Positions 40 to 5,910 are shown, counted from the stretch's first letter. The stretch is DNA of 5,910 nt from a virus (IMGVR_UViG_2802429232_000005), one strand, 5' to 3'. Translations and numbers: made by a program. Notes: generated by a model not told the origin, from the sequence alone.

Positions 40-360
40 CCAAATTCACTATGCCACTACATACAAAAGCCTTTCACACACTCCAGACAAACAACTCAAA
101 CACAACAACGAAAGGAATCGCCCACCTGCCATTACTCCATACACGGAGAAGAACAATCACCAAAACGACGAGAACACCCCATAGAAGAACCACCGCAAAA
201 CGAACGAAACCACATACACCGACAGAGAAAACAACACACCCAATTCACCAACAGAAATAGTCGCCGTATAGAACATTCTGGAAGGAGTGAGCATTAACGC
301 CTATAGAAAGGTTGAGACAGATAAAACACGAAGAAAACACAACATGTATAGCGAAGAAGC
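40..360 (+). other. A+C-rich, T/G-poor compositionally skewed tract; probably non-coding (candidate structured-free RNA or ssDNA spacer)
   Basis: Hand count of 61-240 gives roughly A 48-55%, C about 30%, T 3-12%, G 10-13% on the + strand. The ORFs called here (13..297, 36..260) start at GTG and translate to low-complexity T/Q/H/R/K/P-rich peptides. Confidence 0.5.
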
Positions 361-383
361 CAGGTATGTATAAGTGGGGAGGG

Positions 384-408
384 AAGGAGGGGTGTCGCCT
401 CCTTTTTC
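384..408 (+). terminator. Intrinsic terminator-like hairpin (AAGGAGG / CCTCCTT stem, 7-nt loop) followed by T5
   Basis: AAGGAGG (384-390) pairs with CCTCCTT (398-404); TTTTT run 403-407 directly follows the stem. Confidence 0.55.
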
Positions 409-471
409 GTATTTATTCAACTCCTGATTTTATCCCCCCGTAACACCCCTACGGTCAGCCTTCGGTCCATA

Positions 472-606
472 CAGGGAAAGGCTGCATCCTGCTACAGAAA
501 CGGCTGGGTTGCCTTCGGGGAACGGCTGGAGGTTTTCAGGGAAACGGTCGAGTTGCCTGTGTGGATTTCGGGAAAAGGCTCGATGCCGGTTCAGGAACGG
601 TGGTGT
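472..606. repeat. Cluster of about six degenerate ~22-bp direct repeats, core GGGAAACGGCTG (iteron-like)
   Basis: cagggaaaggctg (472), cagaaacggctgg (495), ggggaacggctgg (517), cagggaaacggtcg (537), cgggaaaaggctcg (568), caggaacggtggtg (591); spacing about 22-32 bp. No reverse-complement copies, so these are direct repeats, not a long hairpin. Confidence 0.6.
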
Positions 607-785
607 ACCGGTATAGCGAGAGGGAGAGTTGCGGCTGCCCACCTGTAATGTGCGGGAAGAAGAGAGGCGCTCACGTGCAGGCGGACTAACTTACCGCTGG
701 ATTCCCTCTGAATGCCCAGCTACAGCGTAATTGTGCCAGACAGCCAACGGGTCACAATCGATTTCAGTAGGTTTTCGGGGAGATG

Positions 786-830
786 ATTATTCTGCCCACC
801 AGCCACCTTAGGCCACTAAATCAGAATAAT
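786..830. repeat. Perfect 9-bp inverted repeat ATTATTCTG / CAGAATAAT with 27-bp spacer
   Basis: ATTATTCTG at 786-794 and its exact reverse complement CAGAATAAT at 822-830. Confidence 0.5.
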
Positions 831-917
831 GTAAAAAGTGTACTCGGTACTGAACCTGAAAACTCACTGCCAAAACCACATTCACCGGAATAAAATCCTT
901 TTTCGCCTGTGCGTTAT

Positions 918-957
918 TGCGATAATAACACCATTAAGAAAACATCTTGTTTAAGGA
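918..957 (+). promoter_or_regulatory. Conserved leader module A: extended -10 (TGcGATAAT), AACA-tct-TGTT palindrome, SD AAGGA
   Basis: TGCGATAAT 918-926; palindrome 941-951; AAGGA 953-957, 7 nt before ATG 965. The module recurs upstream of other genes in the array. Confidence 0.5.
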
Positions 958-964
958 TTGCTTT

Positions 965-1294
965 ATGTTTGCAAATATCGACATCAACCAAATTAAGAAA
1001 TTGACTCAAAAAGAGTTTGACCAGTTTTATGAGCTGGAAGGTTGGTCTTCCACTCTGATTAATTCAAGATGGGTGCTGGAACTGATGACTCGTGATGACG
1101 CACCTGCTTTGATGATCAGCGACCTGGGTGAAGATGCTGACTTTATGGATATGAGCGAATTTTGTGTGGACACATACAACCGCAGCCAGAAGTACTACTT
1201 CACATGCGATAGCGAAAATGACGTGATTTCTAAGGTCTATCTTCACCTCGTCCAGCATTGGGACGTTCAGGAGTTTCTTGAGGTATTCGCGTAA
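965..1294 (+). CDS. Hypothetical small acidic protein (109 aa)
   Basis: ATG 965 with SD AAGGA at 7-nt spacing. The ORF track's longer form starts at TTG 947 with no SD. Hand count about 21 D/E vs 8 K/R. Stop TAA 1292-1294, followed by hairpin 1304-1322. Confidence 0.6.
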   Translation: MFANIDINQIKKLTQKEFDQFYELEGWSSTLINSRWVLELMTRDDAPALMISDLGEDADFMDMSEFCVDTYNRSQKYYFTCDSENDVISKVYLHLVQHWDVQEFLEVFA

Positions 1295-1303
1295 TCACAA
1301 CCA

Positions 1304-1322
1304 AAGCCAGCATTGCTGGCTT
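1304..1322 (+). other. GC-rich hairpin AAGCCAGCA / TGCTGGCTT downstream of the 109-aa gene (no clear U-tract)
   Basis: Inverted repeat 1304-1312 / 1314-1322; same AAG-palindrome-CTTAA style as the hairpins at 2926 and 3397. Confidence 0.45.
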
Positions 1323-1391
1323 AACTTAATCTGTAGCCGCAGGGAAGAACCTGCATATCGCTCATGCGCCTGATTAATATGCTTTGTAGCC

Positions 1392-1443
1392 GTTTTCTTA
1401 CTGGTATTATTTACGCCATTGAGAAAACAAGTTGTTTACGGAG
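1392..1443 (+). promoter_or_regulatory. Conserved leader module D: extended -10 (TGgTATTAT), AAACAA-g-TTGTTT palindrome, SD GGAG
   Basis: TGGTATTAT 1392-1400; perfect 6-bp-arm palindrome 1425-1437; GGAG 1440-1443, 5 nt before ATG 1449. Confidence 0.45.
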
Positions 1444-1448
1444 TTGTG

Positions 1449-1760
1449 ATGAAAAAATCATTGGTTCTTGGTCTGGACAAAGACCAGAAGAGAAAAGAGA
1501 AGCCTGCACTGGTTGCTCAATTAACTTTGCTGGATATCGTTGCCAATGGGACCTCTATTCGTCTGTTCCGTGAAACAGCGGTGTCTTTCGATAAAAACAC
1601 CTTTACTCGTTATGTAATGAATGTTCGTCGCCAGCGTGGAAAAGGCTGGGTGGCATTTCAAAGAATGTGGCCGGAACATCAGCTCGAACTGGCTTTGATG
1701 GAAGTTAACCGCGTGGCCCAGCAAGAGATTCAGAGAGCATCAGTGATGGCAATAGCCTGA
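1449..1760 (+). CDS. Hypothetical small basic protein (103 aa); possible nucleic-acid-binding regulator
   Basis: ATG 1449 preceded by GGAG. The ORF-track start TTG 1419 lies inside the palindromic leader and is unlikely. Hand count about 18 K/R vs 10 D/E. Stop TGA 1758-1760, followed by a strong terminator. Confidence 0.55.
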   Translation: MKKSLVLGLDKDQKRKEKPALVAQLTLLDIVANGTSIRLFRETAVSFDKNTFTRYVMNVRRQRGKGWVAFQRMWPEHQLELALMEVNRVAQQEIQRASVMAIA

Positions 1761-1794
1761 TAATGTGCAAGTGGTAATTAGTCGACCGTACGAC

Positions 1795-1822
1795 AGCCCC
1801 GCCATCCTTACGGGGCTTTTTT
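1795..1822 (+). terminator. Rho-independent terminator (AGCCCCG / CGGGGCT stem, 9-nt loop, T6)
   Basis: Stem 1795-1801 / 1811-1817, followed by TTTTTT 1817-1822. Confidence 0.75.
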
Positions 1823-1849
1823 GTATTGTAAGTACATACTTACGATCAT
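1821..1849 (+). promoter_or_regulatory. Putative sigma70 promoter (TTGTAT-N17-GATCAT) with operator-like palindrome GTAAGTA-ca-TACTTAC in the spacer
   Basis: -35-like TTGTAT 1821-1826, -10-like GATCAT 1844-1849; 7-bp-arm palindrome 1828-1843 fills the spacer. Confidence 0.4.
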
Positions 1850-1886
1850 GGAATAGAAAAATAACCAATACACTACGGAGAGTGAA

Positions 1887-2282
1887 ATGACCGTTAAACG
1901 CGAAAAACTGACAGTTGATGTTTACTATGCCTCTGAAACCGCCGAAGGTAAGAATGTGGCAAAAATCACCGTTGTTACGTACAACACCGAAACTGGTGCC
2001 GAAGTCCAGGCCAGTACGATCGTGCGTAAAGGTGATGCCTCCGGCGGCGAGTACGCGACTCAATACCAGTCTATTTTCGATGCAACTGACCCGCTGCTGC
2101 TGAAAATCGAGAACTACTTCCGCCAGGTTGATGAAGAGGTGTTTGAAACCATGATGAATATGGTTAACACCGTATTCGCCTCCAGCCTGAATACCAACAC
2201 TACCTGGATTGGTCAGTACGGCCTGCGCATTACCTCTGGCATTCCTGCCGACACCTTAATCCCTGAAAGCGTATTCGCTTAA
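1887..2282 (+). CDS. Hypothetical protein (131 aa), mildly acidic
   Basis: ATG 1887 with SD GGAG 1877-1880 at 6-nt spacing. Stop TAA 2280-2282, followed by a strong hairpin terminator. Confidence 0.7.
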   Translation: MTVKREKLTVDVYYASETAEGKNVAKITVVTYNTETGAEVQASTIVRKGDASGGEYATQYQSIFDATDPLLLKIENYFRQVDEEVFETMMNMVNTVFASSLNTNTTWIGQYGLRITSGIPADTLIPESVFA

Positions 2283-2291
2283 TCCTCTTTA

Positions 2292-2318
2292 AATGGCGCG
2301 TAAACCGCGCCATTTTAT
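2292..2318 (+). terminator. Rho-independent terminator (AATGGCGCG / CGCGCCATT stem, loop TAAAC, T-rich tail)
   Basis: 9-bp perfect stem 2292-2300 / 2306-2314, followed by TTATTA. Confidence 0.7.
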
Positions 2319-2325
2319 TATGCCC

Positions 2326-2392
2326 GATAACAATTTGTTTTCTGCCTTATCTGATTTGTGAAAATGATTTCACTGAAGCAACTTAATAAGGA
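2326..2392 (+). promoter_or_regulatory. Leader module E: GATAAC, AACAA-t-TTGTT palindrome, shared TGCCTTATCT 10-mer, GTGAAA-atga-TTTCAC palindrome, SD AAGGA
   Basis: Palindromes at 2329-2339 and 2358-2373; TGCCTTATCT 2343-2352 is identical to 3042-3051; AAGGA 2388-2392, 7 nt before ATG 2400. Confidence 0.45.
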
Positions 2393-2399
2393 AACCATC

Positions 2400-2774
2400 A
2401 TGGGACTTGATATCTATATCGAGACGCAGCCTAAAAACGATCTGAATAACGAGGTATCCAGAAAGCAGGTTGCTTACTTCCGTAAGTTCAATGCGCTCGT
2501 TGGGTGGATGGAGCGCAACGTAGGTGAAGTCGAAAATTGTGAGCTTTTAGAATTAACGATGAATGACATTTGCCTTCTGAAAGCTCATTTGATGCACATA
2601 AACGAAAGCAATTGCGAAGAGTACTTGCCTACCCGGGAAGGTTTTTTCTTCGGCAGTCAGGAGTACGACGAAGGTTACTGGCATGATGTGGGGGAGTTGA
2701 AAGAGCTTGTGGAAGATCTGATTAAGAACCACGACTTTCACAATAATAGACTGACCTTCTGCGCCTGGTGGTAA
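2400..2774 (+). CDS. Hypothetical small acidic protein (124 aa)
   Basis: ATG 2400 with SD AAGGA. The ORF-track start GTG 2358 lies inside the operator-like palindrome. Hand count about 23 D/E vs 11 K/R. Stop TAA 2772-2774. Confidence 0.6.
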   Translation: MGLDIYIETQPKNDLNNEVSRKQVAYFRKFNALVGWMERNVGEVENCELLELTMNDICLLKAHLMHINESNCEEYLPTREGFFFGSQEYDEGYWHDVGELKELVEDLIKNHDFHNNRLTFCAWW

Positions 2775-2776
2775 AT

Positions 2777-2920
2777 ATGGGCGATTTCAAGAAACGCCTG
2801 AAGGAGAGAGCCGAGATGGTCAGAAAGCGAAACGCCTCTTCTGTCATCAGATACGCAAGGCAGTTTAGTCGCAACAACAAATCAGTTGAGGAAAAGATCC
2901 TTAGCGTAATCGGGCGATAA
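2777..2920 (+). CDS. Hypothetical very basic small protein (47 aa), possibly translationally coupled to the upstream acidic gene
   Basis: ATG 2777 lies 2 nt after the upstream stop, with GGTGG 5 nt upstream. Hand translation MGDFKKRLKERAEMVRKRNASSVIRYARQFSRNNKSVEEKILSVIGR, stop TAA 2918-2920. Not in the ORF track, presumably below its length cut-off. The stop sits 5 nt before hairpin repeat 2926, the same spacing as stop 3391 to hairpin 3397. Confidence 0.4.
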   Translation: MGDFKKRLKERAEMVRKRNASSVIRYARQFSRNNKSVEEKILSVIGR

Positions 2921-2925
2921 TTATT

Positions 2926-2956
2926 AAGGCCACCAGCATTGGTGGTCTTAAATGAC
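2926..2956 (+). repeat. Hairpin repeat copy 1: AAGGCCACCA-gcat-TGGTGGtCTT + AAATGAC
   Basis: 10-bp stem (one G-T wobble) with 4-nt loop; about 90% identical to the copy at 3397-3428. Confidence 0.6.
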
Positions 2957-3041
2957 TTTTAATAACCGAAGGTTAGTTTGAAACCTGGCTATCAACTTCC
3001 AGAACCTTTCTTGTGTATTCAGCCTGTATTAACTTCTTTTA

Positions 3042-3102
3042 TGCCTTATCTACACTGCGATAATTACACCAACAAGAAAACAACATGTTTACGCAGTGAG
3101 GA
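3042..3102 (+). promoter_or_regulatory. Conserved leader module B: TGCCTTATCT, extended -10 TGcGATAAT, AAACA-aca-TGTTT palindrome, SD GAGGA
   Basis: TGCGATAAT 3056-3064; palindrome 3078-3090 (core AACATGTT is perfect); GAGGA 3098-3102, 7 nt before ATG 3110. Confidence 0.5.
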
Positions 3103-3109
3103 TATGCTC

Positions 3110-3391
3110 ATGACTGATTTCACCATTACCCCTAAAGCACAAAATGTATTTCTTGAATCATGGCTGGACTTGCCGGAAACAGAACAGCAAGAAATGGATC
3201 ATGTGGATTATGACGAGCAGGTAAGCACGCGATTCTTCCACTTTGAGGGATGCGTTTACGACATTGTCGACTTCATGCGAGATGACCGCTTCCCTGAATG
3301 GCACGCAAGCTATCCACTAAACGCCTTTGCCATGCTGATGATCCGTGTGGATGATTCAGGGGATACCATCGACATCGGTCTGCTCCACTAA
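3110..3391 (+). CDS. Hypothetical small, strongly acidic protein (93 aa); DNA-mimic-like composition
   Basis: ATG 3110 with SD GAGGA at 7-nt spacing. In-frame ATG 3104 is too close to the SD, and the track's TTG 2978 start would run through the promoter module. Hand count about 20 D/E vs 5 K/R. Stop TAA 3389-3391. Confidence 0.6.
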   Translation: MTDFTITPKAQNVFLESWLDLPETEQQEMDHVDYDEQVSTRFFHFEGCVYDIVDFMRDDRFPEWHASYPLNAFAMLMIRVDDSGDTIDIGLLH

Positions 3392-3396
3392 AGGCT

Positions 3397-3428
3397 AAGG
3401 CCACCAATGCTGGTGGCCTTAAATGACC
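3397..3428 (+). repeat. Hairpin repeat copy 2: AAGGCCACCA-atgc-TGGTGGCCTT + AAATGACC
   Basis: Perfect 10-bp stem with 4-nt loop, 5 nt after the stop codon; direct repeat of 2926-2956. Confidence 0.6.
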
Positions 3429-3520
3429 ATCCTGTTTCCCTCAGGCTAATAACACCAACCTCTTACCTCCAGGCAACCGACAAACCCACCTGTTCCCGTC
3501 CGGCTACCGCAACTTTCCAC

Positions 3521-3588
3521 TTTGACGCCTTATTCGTACAACGATAATTAATACCAACAAGAAAACAATTTGTTATTTACGATAAGGA
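3521..3588 (+). promoter_or_regulatory. Conserved leader module C: sigma70-like promoter TTTGAC-N16-GATAAT, AACAA-t-TTGTT palindrome, SD AAGGA
   Basis: TTTGAC 3521-3526, GATAAT 3543-3548; palindrome 3564-3574; AAGGA 3584-3588, 7 nt before ATG 3596. Confidence 0.55.
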
Positions 3589-3595
3589 ATTAATC

Positions 3596-4078
3596 ATGAA
3601 TTTTATCGCTACTGTAAACGCACCCGCACATGGCAATATCGCTGTAACGTTCTCTGACATTGAAAAACGAGTACTTGGTGCATGGCGCGACAATGAGACG
3701 GTAGAACTGTCAGCACAAGAAAAATGCATTATTGCACGCGACATCATTGGCAATCGTCGTTACTCGCGGGTATTTGAGAAAGCGTATGTGGTAAATTCTG
3801 GATTCGGAACGTTCGTCTTTCCGGTGCGCTCCGGGCGATTCTGCCAGTCCAAGCTGATTGAGTTCGCTACGCAGATTTCTGTCTGGATTAAAACTCAATC
3901 GTCGTTCAAATTTTCCGACGATGAAGCAGTATCGCAGGGGATGCGGATCGCCAACAATGCGATTAAATGCAAAAACATTACGTATACCGCTGGCGTTGAT
4001 ACATGGAAACTGTTTTGCGCTAACTTTATGCTGAACGTATACGCCAGCAACCGCATCCACATCCTTGATGGCGTGTAA
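3596..4078 (+). CDS. Hypothetical protein (160 aa)
   Basis: ATG 3596 with SD and a near-consensus promoter upstream. Stop TAA 4076-4078, followed by a stable hairpin. Confidence 0.7.
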   Translation: MNFIATVNAPAHGNIAVTFSDIEKRVLGAWRDNETVELSAQEKCIIARDIIGNRRYSRVFEKAYVVNSGFGTFVFPVRSGRFCQSKLIEFATQISVWIKTQSSFKFSDDEAVSQGMRIANNAIKCKNITYTAGVDTWKLFCANFMLNVYASNRIHILDGV

Positions 4079-4080
4079 CT

Positions 4081-4109
4081 GAGAAGAGGGCCAGAAACGG
4101 CCCTTTCTC
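4081..4109 (+). terminator. Stable hairpin (GAGAAGAGGGCC / GGCCCTTTCTC, loop AGAAAC) after the 160-aa gene; weak U-tract
   Basis: About 11-bp stem with a 1-nt bulge; the loop carries the CAGAAACGGC repeat motif; the T-rich tail lies partly inside the stem. Confidence 0.4.
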
Positions 4110-4123
4110 TATAGCCACCAGCT

Positions 4124-4206
4124 GCCGCAGGGAAATTTTCAGAAACGGCAAGGAACGCATTCATGAGCCGACGGGAAACGGCCAGGATTTTTTCGGGAAA
4201 CGGCTG
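4124..4206. repeat. Second cluster of GGGAAACGGC-type direct repeats (4-5 degenerate units)
   Basis: cagggaaa (4129), cagaaacggc (4140), aggaacgc (4151), cgggaaacggcc (4172), cgggaaacggctg (4194). GCCGCAGGGAA at 4124-4134 also occurs at 1336-1346. Confidence 0.55.
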
Positions 4207-4334
4207 CATTCGCCTTTGTGTAGAAAAAAACATCGGGAAGCTGGTGGAATCCAACCAGCGGTTGTCGGACAGGTGAGCGGGGAAAATTATGATGACTTTC
4301 GTCGCCTGAGACATCCAGATTTCTTTCGTAGCAT

Positions 4335-4388
4335 AATCACATACGTGATTAAGTGGTGTGATTATGTGAAAAATCACGCGCACATAAT
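4335..4388. promoter_or_regulatory. Cluster of GTGATT / AATCAC inverted repeats; candidate operator or origin-like site
   Basis: AATCAC-atac-GTGATT at 4335-4350; ATTATGTG (4361-4368) and CACATAAT (4381-4388) form a perfect 8-bp inverted repeat; four GTGATT/AATCAC hexamers in alternating orientation. Confidence 0.35.
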
Positions 4389-4420
4389 ACGCGAGCGGAT
4401 ACGGAACAAAACAAAATGCC

Positions 4421-4448
4421 GATCCGCGCCGACAAATAAACGCGGATC
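4421..4448. other. Perfect 8-bp inverted repeat GATCCGCG / CGCGGATC with 12-nt spacer, containing two GATC sites
   Basis: GATCCGCG 4421-4428 and CGCGGATC 4441-4448. Confidence 0.4.
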
Positions 4449-4618
4449 ATAAAGCAAGACTAAAAGCCAATGATTAACCATACACCATAACGCAATATAA
4501 CGCGTTTTAAGCGCGTTAATGCGCTAAGTAATGGGTATATGCTGGTAAGGATATAAAAGCTCGTCTATGGCGTTATTTTTGCGCTTATTTTTATATTGTT
4601 GGAGTGAGTCAAAGACAA

Positions 4619-4642
4619 TAAAAAAAGCGCCATCATTGGCGC
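4619..4642 (-). terminator. Rho-independent terminator on the minus strand (GCGCCA / TGGCGC stem, then T-run on the minus strand)
   Basis: Stem 4627-4632 / 4637-4642; the A-run at 4619-4626 on + is a U-run after the hairpin on the minus strand. Confidence 0.6.
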
Positions 4643-4666
4643 GTTATGGTGGAAGTATTGGAAACG

Positions 4667-4689
4667 AAAAAAGCGCCCATAGTGGGCGC
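4667..4689 (-). terminator. Rho-independent terminator on the minus strand (GCGCCCA / TGGGCGC stem, loop TAG, T6 on the minus strand)
   Basis: Stem 4673-4679 / 4683-4689 preceded on + by AAAAAA 4667-4672; lies just downstream of the 76-aa gene stop. Confidence 0.7.
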
Positions 4690-4695
4690 TCGATT

Positions 4696-4926
4696 TTATT
4701 TATGTAAACTGATTTCAAATCCCATTTCTACAAACGCTTTTAACATTAAAAATATATCAGCGTCATTCACGTCTGCTTTTTTTCGCTCCTGGTCGCTCAA
4801 TAAGTCAATTTTGCGCGTCGTTTCATCTATAAGCTCGACTGCGCGCCCAGCGTAACCAGCGATCCCAGCGATGCGATTAACAAAATATTCATTGCGCACG
4901 TTAACGCCAGCGATAATCATAAACAT
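4696..4926 (-). CDS. Hypothetical small protein (76 aa)
   Basis: ATG (complement of 4924-4926) with SD AAGGAG (complement of 4934-4939) at 7-nt spacing. Flanked by near-identical terminator hairpins; AT-rich codon usage like the adjacent 216-aa gene. Confidence 0.6.
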   Translation of the reverse strand: MFMIIAGVNVRNEYFVNRIAGIAGYAGRAVELIDETTRKIDLLSDQERKKADVNDADIFLMLKAFVEMGFEISLHK

Positions 4927-4939
4927 GATTAAGCTCCTT

Positions 4940-4960
4940 AAAAGCGCCCATAGTGGGCGC
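4940..4960 (-). terminator. Rho-independent terminator on the minus strand between the 216-aa and 76-aa genes; near-identical to 4667-4689
   Basis: Stem GCGCCCA 4944-4950 / TGGGCGC 4954-4960, loop TAG. On the minus strand it is followed by TTTT and then immediately the AAGGAG SD of the 76-aa gene. Confidence 0.65.
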
Positions 4961-4973
4961 CAGATTCCATTAA

Positions 4974-5624
4974 TTACGCTTTGAAAGCATCAGCCAGATA
5001 GTTATAGAAATCATTTTTAATAAAGCGATATTGCTGCGTACCAGCTTTTGCGCTTCCCATTCCTTTGACTTTCTCAACAAGTCCAAGACGTTCGCAAAGA
5101 TTGATCAACTGGTTGGCTTGAGTATAGCCAGCGTCCAATTTAATTTCGCACGCTTTTTTAGCTTCATTCATTAAATCGAAAACAGCGCCATTAGTGAACG
5201 TGTCGATCTCGTCGTTAATCATATCGATTAAAGCGAATACACGAGATCCTGACATATCAGCGATGGAGTAAACGCATTTACCAGATTTAATTGATTTAAC
5301 CAGATAAACCAGTTTTTCCAGTGAATAACTATTAGTCATTGCATCACGAAAAAATACTTCTGGCGCTTGTTTACTTGCTTTAATCGCATAGTAGAAAACA
5401 GAGCATAATTTTTCATCTTCTACAGCGTTTACAACGTTGTTGATGAAGTAAGCAAGTTTAGTGGTCGCAGCTTGCATATTTGCTTTGTCTGCTTTAGTGT
5501 GCGTACCATTTTTATAATGTTCGTTATATGTTTGAGTTGCCAGATCTGCTTTTTCGCGCAGCTCGTCGGATACAATGGATGCAGCTTCAATGATGGATTT
5601 TTTAGAAATGATAATGTTAGCCAT
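4974..5624 (-). CDS. Hypothetical protein (216 aa), Lys/Ala-rich, AT-rich codon usage; family not recognised
   Basis: ATG (complement of 5622-5624) with SD AAGGA (complement of 5633-5637) at 8-nt spacing; long uninterrupted ORF; terminator directly downstream. Confidence 0.7.
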   Translation of the reverse strand: MANIIISKKSIIEAASIVSDELREKADLATQTYNEHYKNGTHTKADKANMQAATTKLAYFINNVVNAVEDEKLCSVFYYAIKASKQAPEVFFRDAMTNSYSLEKLVYLVKSIKSGKCVYSIADMSGSRVFALIDMINDEIDTFTNGAVFDLMNEAKKACEIKLDAGYTQANQLINLCERLGLVEKVKGMGSAKAGTQQYRFIKNDFYNYLADAFKA

Positions 5625-5760
5625 GATAATATCCTTATGAAAGTTTAAAATTTAACTCAAGAAAGAAAGTGTTTACTCTCGTTCCTGATGCGTTCAATTA
5701 TCGATACGCAAAAAAAGATTGCAAGTATTTTTTTAAATTTTTTGCAGGGACGAAAGTCCT
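5625..5760 (-). promoter_or_regulatory. AT-rich upstream region of the 216-aa gene (promoter not resolved); contains a GGAC-GAAA-GTCC mini-hairpin
   Basis: About 30% GC, A/T runs, position relative to the start codon; GGACGAAAGTCC at about 5749-5760. Confidence 0.3.
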
Positions 5761-5910
5761 AGAAATAAAATCGAGATCGTCGAAGGTGTTCCCTAAATAA
5801 ATAATTAATTCCGGCTTATAACCTTATATATTTATACGGGGTAGAATTGGAGGTGTATTTAATAATTGGCATTTAAAAAAATAACCGAACTTAGCCTGTT
5901 ATTACACTTA

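Follow-up and report, generated by a model that had tools for sequence, protein, structure and literature searches.

What is a row of small genes doing in a mobile element when all of them are read from one strand, most of them appear to carry their own regulatory signals and none belongs to a recognised family? The question is raised by IMGVR_UViG_2802429232_000005, a viral DNA of 5,910 nt (the window), for which an earlier note, made from the sequence alone, had described such an array and suggested an early-expressed or anti-defence island. Bases 62–5910 of the window are 97% identical to pLF82 of Escherichia coli LF82, which is the phage Cyrano, and by its sequence the host element is an SSU5-like phage-plasmid of the siphovirus type. 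The Cyrano genome (108 kb, 87% coding) contains terminase, capsid, tail and lysis genes, a RepA replicon, ParA, toxin–antitoxin pairs and many DNA-metabolism genes. We conclude that the locus is probably a variable accessory-gene ('hyperplastic') region of this phage-plasmid, in which small genes come and go at repeated promoter–operator and terminator cassettes. The core of the earlier proposal, an accessory island of individually promoted small genes in a mobile element, is therefore supported, and several of its particulars need revision.

Seven open reading frames (ORFs), which we call A to G, lie on the + strand between positions 965 and 4078 and form six transcription units, each with a terminal hairpin. 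The array of 47–160-aa products is confirmed, as are the sizes and hand-counted charges given for them. A Shine–Dalgarno-like sequence is present at all seven ORFs, and the six hairpins, located after A, B, C, E, F and G, are stable (–12.4 to –19.6 kcal/mol, z –3.3 to –5.3), with a good U-tract only after B and C. The idea that every gene has a leader and hairpin of its own fails for E, which starts 2 nt past the D stop and has neither, giving six transcription units rather than seven; the leaders of the other genes are moreover not all individual, but share a cassette. The ratios of nonsynonymous to synonymous substitution rates (dN/dS) relative to orthologues are 0.06–0.22 for A, 0.09–0.16 for B, 0.06–0.29 for C, 0.07–0.14 for D, 0.06–0.14 for F and 0.07–0.18 for G, which indicates that these six are real genes. 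For E, each comparison offers just 1–2 substitutions and its coding status is not proven.

Four of the products had been called strongly acidic and two basic. Net charge computation bears this out for A, D and F as acidic and for B and E as basic proteins, but C is only mildly acidic and G mildly basic. F, A and D are among the most acidic small proteins of Cyrano, although the enrichment is modest (three of seven island genes versus six of 48 others). All of the family members examined, 45 for D and 16 for F, are likewise acidic.

A single cassette of 60–76 nt is common to the leaders of A, B, F and G (class I), and D has a variant of it (class II); the leader of C is different. Class I cassettes consist of a weak –35 element, an extended –10 element (TGCGATAAT or TGGTATTAT; GATAAT without the TG in the case of G) and, 9–11 nt further on, the palindrome AGAAAACAAnnTGTT(TAC), with the start codon 13–21 nt past the palindrome. 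In class II, the palindrome is inverted, overlaps the –35 region and is followed by TGTGAAAAT, a layout that is repeated at CYRAN_93 and CYRAN_101. The palindrome is thus positioned either at about +4 to +18 relative to the predicted transcription start or over the –35 element. A simple promoter scan missed these cassettes because it requires a –35 element.

The palindrome occurs five times in the window, where 0.04 occurrences are expected. Nineteen sites with at most one mismatch are found in the Cyrano genome, 17 of them intergenic and 14 located on the same strand as, and 13–67 nt 5′ of, a start codon. About 15 further Cyrano promoter regions are marked in this way, and the genes concerned include terS, parA, the replicative helicase gene, nrdB, tciA and CYRAN_58, 87 and 101. 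The site is kept 5′ of the B, F and G orthologues in Salmonella Typhi pHCM2, Klebsiella and Enterobacter elements and 5′ of F and G in Yersinia pestis pMT1, despite orthologue proteins that are just 63–80% identical. The feature by which a repressor–operator regulon was sought, a conserved, intergenic palindrome at promoters, is therefore present at the sequence level. Its location over the predicted start or the –35 element, its dyad symmetry and its occurrence in both orientations together argue for a DNA operator bound by a dimer. No LexA boxes were identified at the island promoters, and a literature search returned no description of the palindrome or of the second motif discussed below.

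Regulons with dispersed operators are known from other plasmids and phages: KorB and its 13-bp OB palindromes on RK2, the C1 operators of P1 and the sop centromeres of N15. The Cyrano palindrome resembles these in being a short site present at a dozen or more promoter-proximal positions, among them the promoter of a partition operon, and in lying over the start or next to the –35 element. It differs in that the site sequence is unrelated (its core is AAACAAnTTGTTT) and in that repression through this candidate operator is our inference.

Support for the cassettes as units of exchange comes from a comparison of the window with six related E. coli elements. Four independent insertion, deletion or replacement events are evident, and all of their endpoints fall inside operator, terminator or promoter repeats: (i) a 357-bp module, which adds a gene for a 71-aa protein (X), has been inserted precisely between two operator copies, corresponding to window positions 933–953; (ii) the F module is missing from four elements, with the two copies of a 32-bp terminator repeat (2925–2956 and 3396–3427) as endpoints; (iii) one element (L012) has exchanged C-D-E for a Klebsiella-type C allele of 36% amino acid identity, with breakpoints at 1842, inside the C palindrome, and at 3031, the start of the F cassette; and (iv) some elements have, and others lack, a minus-strand gene of 67 aa between genes H and I, at 4931–4943, between repeated terminators. 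The last event indicates that cassette-type turnover operates on the opposite strand as well.

The closest architectural parallel is provided by the promoter-early stem-loop (PeSL) cassettes in the hyperplastic regions of T4-like phages, which bracket non-essential ORFs and where recombination between neighbouring cassettes yields encapsidated mini-circles (Arbiol 2010, PMC2839356; Comeau 2014, PMC4122927). In both cases, small ORFs of unknown function are bracketed by a repeated composite of sigma70-like promoter and stem-loop, as judged from sequence, and insertions, deletions and replacements among close relatives end within the cassette repeats. The likeness is one of architecture, and we claim no sequence similarity to the T4 PeSLs. 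Three differences can be named: the host is a temperate siphovirus-type phage-plasmid rather than a virulent T4-like myovirus, the cassette has an added palindromic operator through which the genes could be silenced, and a second, unrelated promoter type (that of C) is interleaved. The kind of locus is therefore known, namely a phage hyperplastic region with regulatory cassettes. This version is set apart by the added operator, the temperate phage-plasmid host and a pair of bracketing iteron-like repeat arrays, and we found no description of it in the literature searched.

The variable content of the locus can also be followed across genera. Matches to the window are found in 951 plasmid records, which come from Escherichia, Klebsiella, Enterobacter, Yersinia and Salmonella. 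Orthologues of B, C, F and G occur in the same order in pHCM2, Klebsiella and Enterobacter, whereas only F and G are kept in pMT1, directly 3′ of an IS1541 element. A and D-E are limited to Escherichia-type elements among those compared, with D additionally present in a few Klebsiella phages. F is conserved through the SSU5 supergroup, including pMT1 and pHCM2, yet missing from several E. coli relatives.

Gene C stands apart from this scheme. It lacks the shared cassette and is instead preceded by the perfect palindrome GTAAGTACATACTTAC, which directly follows the B terminator and abuts the –10-like hexamer GATCAT. The motif that it represents, GTAAGTAnnTACTTAC, has 14 matches with up to two mismatches in the Cyrano genome versus 0.57 in shuffled sequences. 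About 22 intergenic sites can be recognised, often preceded by GATAA and abutting a –10-like hexamer, and they lie 5′ of portal, tail, fibre and holin genes as well as of the SSB, sbcD, thyX, dam and parB-like genes. This motif probably defines a phage-specific class of promoters or activator sites. Homologues of C are found in late regions of other phages: in phiKO2 they follow holin-like genes, in a Proteus phage they are placed between the antiterminator Q and lysis genes, and in a Klebsiella phage between lysozyme and terS. The different promoter class and the late-region homologues indicate that the array is not one uniform early block. A CARF/Csm6 identity for C was considered on the basis of a weak match in three libraries and rejected as chance, since just one of nine homologues shows the match.

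Expression data are available from an LF82 lysogen, in which the median background over Cyrano is 9.8 and the island genes have values of 12.8 (A), 12.2 (B), 17.0 (C), 5.7 (D), 57.9 (E), 6.7 (F) and 25.5 (G), compared with 96 for the putative repressor CYRAN_45 and values in the hundreds for toxin–antitoxin genes (RNA sequencing; Misson 2023, PMC9928086, S1 table). Most other palindrome-bearing genes are silent in the lysogen as well, with parA moderately expressed. That the island is silent in the lysogen is in keeping with a lytic or entry programme under repression and speaks against cargo for lysogenic conversion, perhaps with the exception of E. Cyrano virions increase 39-fold under ciprofloxacin. 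The sole two LexA-box-like sites in Cyrano are located at 41044–41063 and 89275–89294, 5′ of the integrase gene and of a highly expressed UmuD-like S24 peptidase gene, and are possible entry points for SOS induction of the phage.

Three proteins can be put forward as binding the palindrome. The first, CYRAN_114, a 'transcriptional regulator', adjoins the right end of the window (Cyrano 100780–101301, minus strand), matches the FljA family over its full length (PF03614, E 1e-80), has a weak Hfq-like match and is conserved in the pMT1, pHCM2, Klebsiella and Enterobacter elements. An FljA-like regulator is unexpected in a phage-plasmid. The FljA family is described as 'repressor of phase-1 flagellin' and its members act on the fliC 5′ untranslated region (PMC2652032). 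That region in Salmonella contains AACATCAAGTTGTAATTG, which matches the palindrome core at seven of nine positions, a similarity that is not significant (chance probability roughly 0.1), and the corresponding E. coli region has no match to the palindrome, so the palindrome as an FljA target is a lead only. The second candidate is the Xre-type putative repressor CYRAN_45; the CYRAN_45/46 intergenic region has no palindrome and contains GGTAAG/CTTACC half-sites resembling the second motif. The third is CYRAN_29, a small protein encoded next to the 222-aa ParA whose promoter bears the palindrome, for which KorB and its OB sites on RK2 provide an analogy.

These features can be combined in a working model. 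The palindrome would be the operator of an element-encoded dimeric repressor that keeps the island promoters shut in the plasmid-prophage state. Upon infection of a naive cell, or upon induction, host RNA polymerase would fire these promoters at once, which would place A, B, D-E, F and G among the early proteins and have C follow later. Stoichiometric inhibition of DNA-binding or defence proteins of the host might then be the role of the conserved acidic products, most plausibly in the case of D and possibly for A and F. The conserved basic proteins B and G may serve the phage's own regulation or DNA transactions. Early expression, as originally proposed for the whole array, probably applies to five of the six transcription units, which have operator-bearing sigma70-type promoters and are near background in the lysogen, but not to C with its late-type signals.

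How far can the anti-defence part of the proposal be sustained? Searches with Pfam, NCBIfam and PADLOC profiles returned no named family for any of the seven island proteins, and all PHROGs matches are of 'unknown function', in agreement with the earlier failure to recognise a family. No significant profile match to known anti-defence or defence families (ArdA, ArdB/KlcA, Ocr) was obtained, with no dedicated anti-defence hidden Markov model set run. Profile searches of the PDB with D, F, G and C gave nothing meaningful, and the AlphaFold2 (AF2) model of F is unusable (predicted local distance difference test score, pLDDT, 57). Matches to A in the phage collection are limited to four E. coli SSU5-like records; the B family is narrow, with 16 representatives at E < 1e-3 among 1.84 billion and orthologues seen only in SSU5-like elements; and F and G are confined to SSU5-supergroup elements. 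In a published DefenseFinder survey of SSU5-group elements, Rad was the sole anti-defence system, and it was present in a minority of elements.

D is the exception. Its family has 79 relatives, down to 29% identity, spread broadly across phages and mobile elements and characterised by the invariant motifs MGLDIY, YFRKxNxL, GFFFGSxxYD and a C-terminal AWW and by the motif ENC. A homologue of 48% identity is followed, after 12 bp, by an ArdB/KlcA-type antirestriction gene and then a polyvalent-protein peptidase domain, at a locus between TraG and the TraI_2 relaxase of a conjugative element, and a homologue of 38% identity lies two genes upstream of ArdA. The AF2 model of D is confident (pLDDT 93.5), and its predicted small, acidic, four-strand alpha/beta fold has a weak or borderline resemblance to YfbM (PDB 1ryl), the DapD N-terminal domain and the Neisseria DNA mimic DMP12 (PDB 3w1o; PMC3643605); a fold search of BFVD retrieved uncharacterised phage proteins only. 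By association and this borderline fold match, D is a reasonable counter-defence or establishment candidate. E travels with D, the two being both present or both absent in all loci compared. A type II toxin–antitoxin pair was considered for D-E and rejected, as no toxin–antitoxin family match was obtained and D homologues elsewhere have no E homologue after them. The anti-defence suggestion is thus plausible for D, by association with ArdA or ArdB/KlcA neighbours and by a borderline resemblance to DMP12, and the other products have no independent evidence for it.

Taken to its full extent, this line of thought would make the locus an establishment toolkit of SSU5-like elements, including pMT1 and pHCM2: D, A and F would be new families of DNA-mimic or blocking acidic inhibitors directed against restriction or nucleoid-associated defence, fired on entry and gated by the operator, the cassettes would be swap joints between phage-plasmids and conjugative elements, and the flanking arrays would form a silencing nucleoprotein boundary. 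We offer this extended version as a speculation that is rather unlikely to hold in all its parts.

Several observations weigh against reading the locus as an early accessory-gene island. E is expressed in the lysogen at 5.9 times the background while D, directly upstream, is at the floor; the E signal may come from a promoter of its own or from a stable 3′-end fragment or small RNA (window 2777–2951, E plus hairpin). The term 'early' is derived from predicted promoter type and lysogen silence. For A, B, F and G, relatives could be detected in SSU5-like elements only, which leaves no function to transfer to them. Purifying selection (dN/dS about 0.1) and conservation of B, F and G fit phage housekeeping as readily as counter-defence; these appear to be conserved lineage-specific genes rather than obvious arms-race cargo and may serve the phage itself. 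Finally, the repeat arrays on either side of the island could reflect another role of the locus, one centred on DNA.

These arrays are the starting point for an alternative in which the phage-plasmid uses the locus as a module for its own DNA transactions or control, for example a secondary or lytic origin, or a copy-control, silencing or partition-related site. Within the 108 kb of Cyrano, no copy of the repeat motif lies outside the two island flanks. E. coli, Klebsiella, pHCM2 and Enterobacter elements have both arrays, with unchanged orientation, and at the pMT1 locus only the right array was seen. The resulting order of array, genes and array recalls iteron replicons such as oriR-repA-incA of P1. 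Conservation of B, F and G would also be expected from such a module, and the F–G intergenic region (3392–3598), with 89% column identity over five lineages, is better conserved than the flanking coding DNA. This region contains CCTGTTTCCC..GGC elements that look like inverted flank repeats. Against a DNA-transaction module, over 30 kb separate the island from the annotated RepA replicon, no island protein has a match to Rep, ParB or any other family of DNA-binding proteins and Tandem Repeats Finder (TRF) scores no arrays in the window. Nor is any island protein linked to the repeats, and the turnover of A, D-E, F and X would be unexplained. We therefore regard this module as unlikely, and as similarly doubtful its specific form, in which the 22-bp arrays are the working parts, bound by B, G or E, and the acidic genes are passengers. 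The flanking arrays themselves may serve as a boundary to which protein binds, for silencing or as a secondary set of iterons.

The island genes could instead be lysogenic-conversion cargo ('morons'), such as genes for defence, superinfection exclusion or host fitness, which the resident plasmid-prophage would express to the benefit of its host. A promoter and terminator for each gene would be moron-like, G (2.6 times background) joins E in being above background in the lysogen, and several island genes rise 4–20-fold in macrophage samples, A going from a log2 value of about 2.3–4.4 to 7.5–7.8. In LB medium, however, the lysogen values of A, B, C, D and F lie at background or close to it, and the authors of the RNA sequencing study did not class these five as morons. 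PADLOC identifies no defence system among the island proteins, and the operator recurs at genes for replication and nucleotide metabolism, which stay silent in the lysogen. On balance, moron cargo is an improbable description of the locus.

The plasmid leading-region analogy, under which an anti-defence island would be transcribed from entering single-stranded DNA, draws on the same-strand array of small acidic genes and on the D homologues found in such regions of conjugative elements, but is refuted by the phage-plasmid context and retains almost no likelihood: Cyrano has terminase, capsid, tail and lysis genes, inspection of its sequence around the island reveals no oriT, relaxase, tra or type IV secretion system (T4SS), ssb or psiB genes, so that the analogy does not apply, 785 of the 951 matching plasmid records are typed as non-mobilizable, and the promoters are ordinary double-stranded sigma70 types with an operator rather than Frpo-like hairpins. 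A limited likeness does persist. Anti-defence islands in the leading regions of conjugative elements (PMC13478746) include ArdA (PF07275), ArdB/KlcA (PF03230) and polyvalent-protein domains. Like them, the Cyrano island is a same-strand array of small, often acidic proteins, expression on entry being a property of theirs; unlike them, it has no oriT, relaxase, single-stranded DNA promoter or known anti-defence family, and D is the sole island gene in common with ArdA or ArdB/KlcA loci.

If the locus is a hyperplastic region of the kind proposed, it would show clearly that genes can be shuffled by cassettes in phages other than the T4-like ones. Clinical E. coli and Klebsiella commonly carry SSU5-like phage-plasmids, as do S. 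Typhi (pHCM2) and Y. pestis (pMT1), yet the regulation of these elements and their accessory genes have hardly been characterised, and very few known anti-defence genes have turned up in published screens. Both of the genome-wide signals proposed here are candidates for defining the lysogeny and lytic programme of the entire group. The island also supplies a short list of testable candidate inhibitors, with D placed first because its family keeps company with ArdA and ArdB/KlcA. Even if the proteins prove to be ordinary factors internal to the phage, the layout of regulation and recombination would still be useful for annotating about a thousand related plasmids.

Table 1. Positions of genes, predicted regulatory elements and repeats in the window
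Feature	Position	Strand	Description
Left iteron-like direct-repeat array	467–610	+	About 6 copies, GGGAAA(A/C)GGC core, mostly 22-bp spacing
Class I cassette of A	898–960	+	Weak –35; TGCGATAAT 918–926; operator AGAAAACATCTTGTT 937–951; Shine–Dalgarno AAGGA 953–957
Gene A	965–1294	+	109 aa, net charge –13, pI 4.2; phrog_7645
Hairpin after A	1304–1322	+	–12.4 kcal/mol, U-tract absent
Class I cassette of B	1385–1444	+	TGGTATTAT 1402–1410; operator AGAAAACAAGTTGTT 1422–1436
Gene B	1449–1760	+	103 aa, net charge +8, pI 10.5, basic
Intrinsic terminator after B	1795–1823	+	Stem and U-run
Class 2 promoter element of C	1828–1849	+	Palindrome 1828–1843, then GATCAT
Gene C	1887–2282	+	131 aa, net charge –7, mildly acidic
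Terminator after C	2291–2320	+	
Class II cassette of D	2324–2367	+	Inverted operator 2329–2343; extended –10 TGTGAAAAT 2357–2365
Gene D	2400–2774	+	124 aa, net charge –12
Gene E	2777–2920	+	47 aa, net charge +9, basic
Hairpin after E	2924–2956	+	Left copy of the 32-bp direct repeat bounding the F module
Class I cassette of F	3031–3098	+	TGCGATAAT 3056–3064; operator AGAAAACAACATGTT 3075–3089
Gene F	3110–3391	+	93 aa, net charge –15, pI 4.1
Hairpin after F	3396–3427	+	Right copy of the 32-bp repeat, F-module deletion endpoint
C/A-rich spacer	3428–3520	+	Inside the F–G intergenic region
Class I cassette of G	3520–3585	+	–35 TTGACG 3522–3527; –10 GATAAT 3543–3548; operator AGAAAACAATTTGTT 3560–3574
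Gene G	3596–4078	+	160 aa, net charge +5, pI 9.2, mildly basic
Hairpin after G	4081–4109	+	
Right iteron-like array	4131–4215	+	3–4 repeats GGGAAACGGC, 22-bp spacing; conserved in all five lineages aligned
Repeated terminator AAAAGCGCCCATAGTGGGCGC	4669–4703 and 4940–4974		
Gene H	4696–4926	–	
Gene I	4974–5624	–	

Three further observations concern the surroundings of the island genes. Rfam and tRNA scans of the window, like that with TRF, found nothing, and this includes an Rfam search of a non-coding tract at 60–300, 5′ of the left repeat array, which is strongly A+C-rich and poor in G and T (AT skew 0.34, GC skew –0.17). The CYRAN_104 ORF annotated in Cyrano (window 366–770) overlaps the left array and is interrupted in the window by a stop at 441–443; it is probably not a gene. 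Phage SSU5 itself has an extra minus-strand gene between its F and G orthologues (L033, 2334–2606), which encodes a 90-aa helix-turn-helix 'repressor-like' protein.

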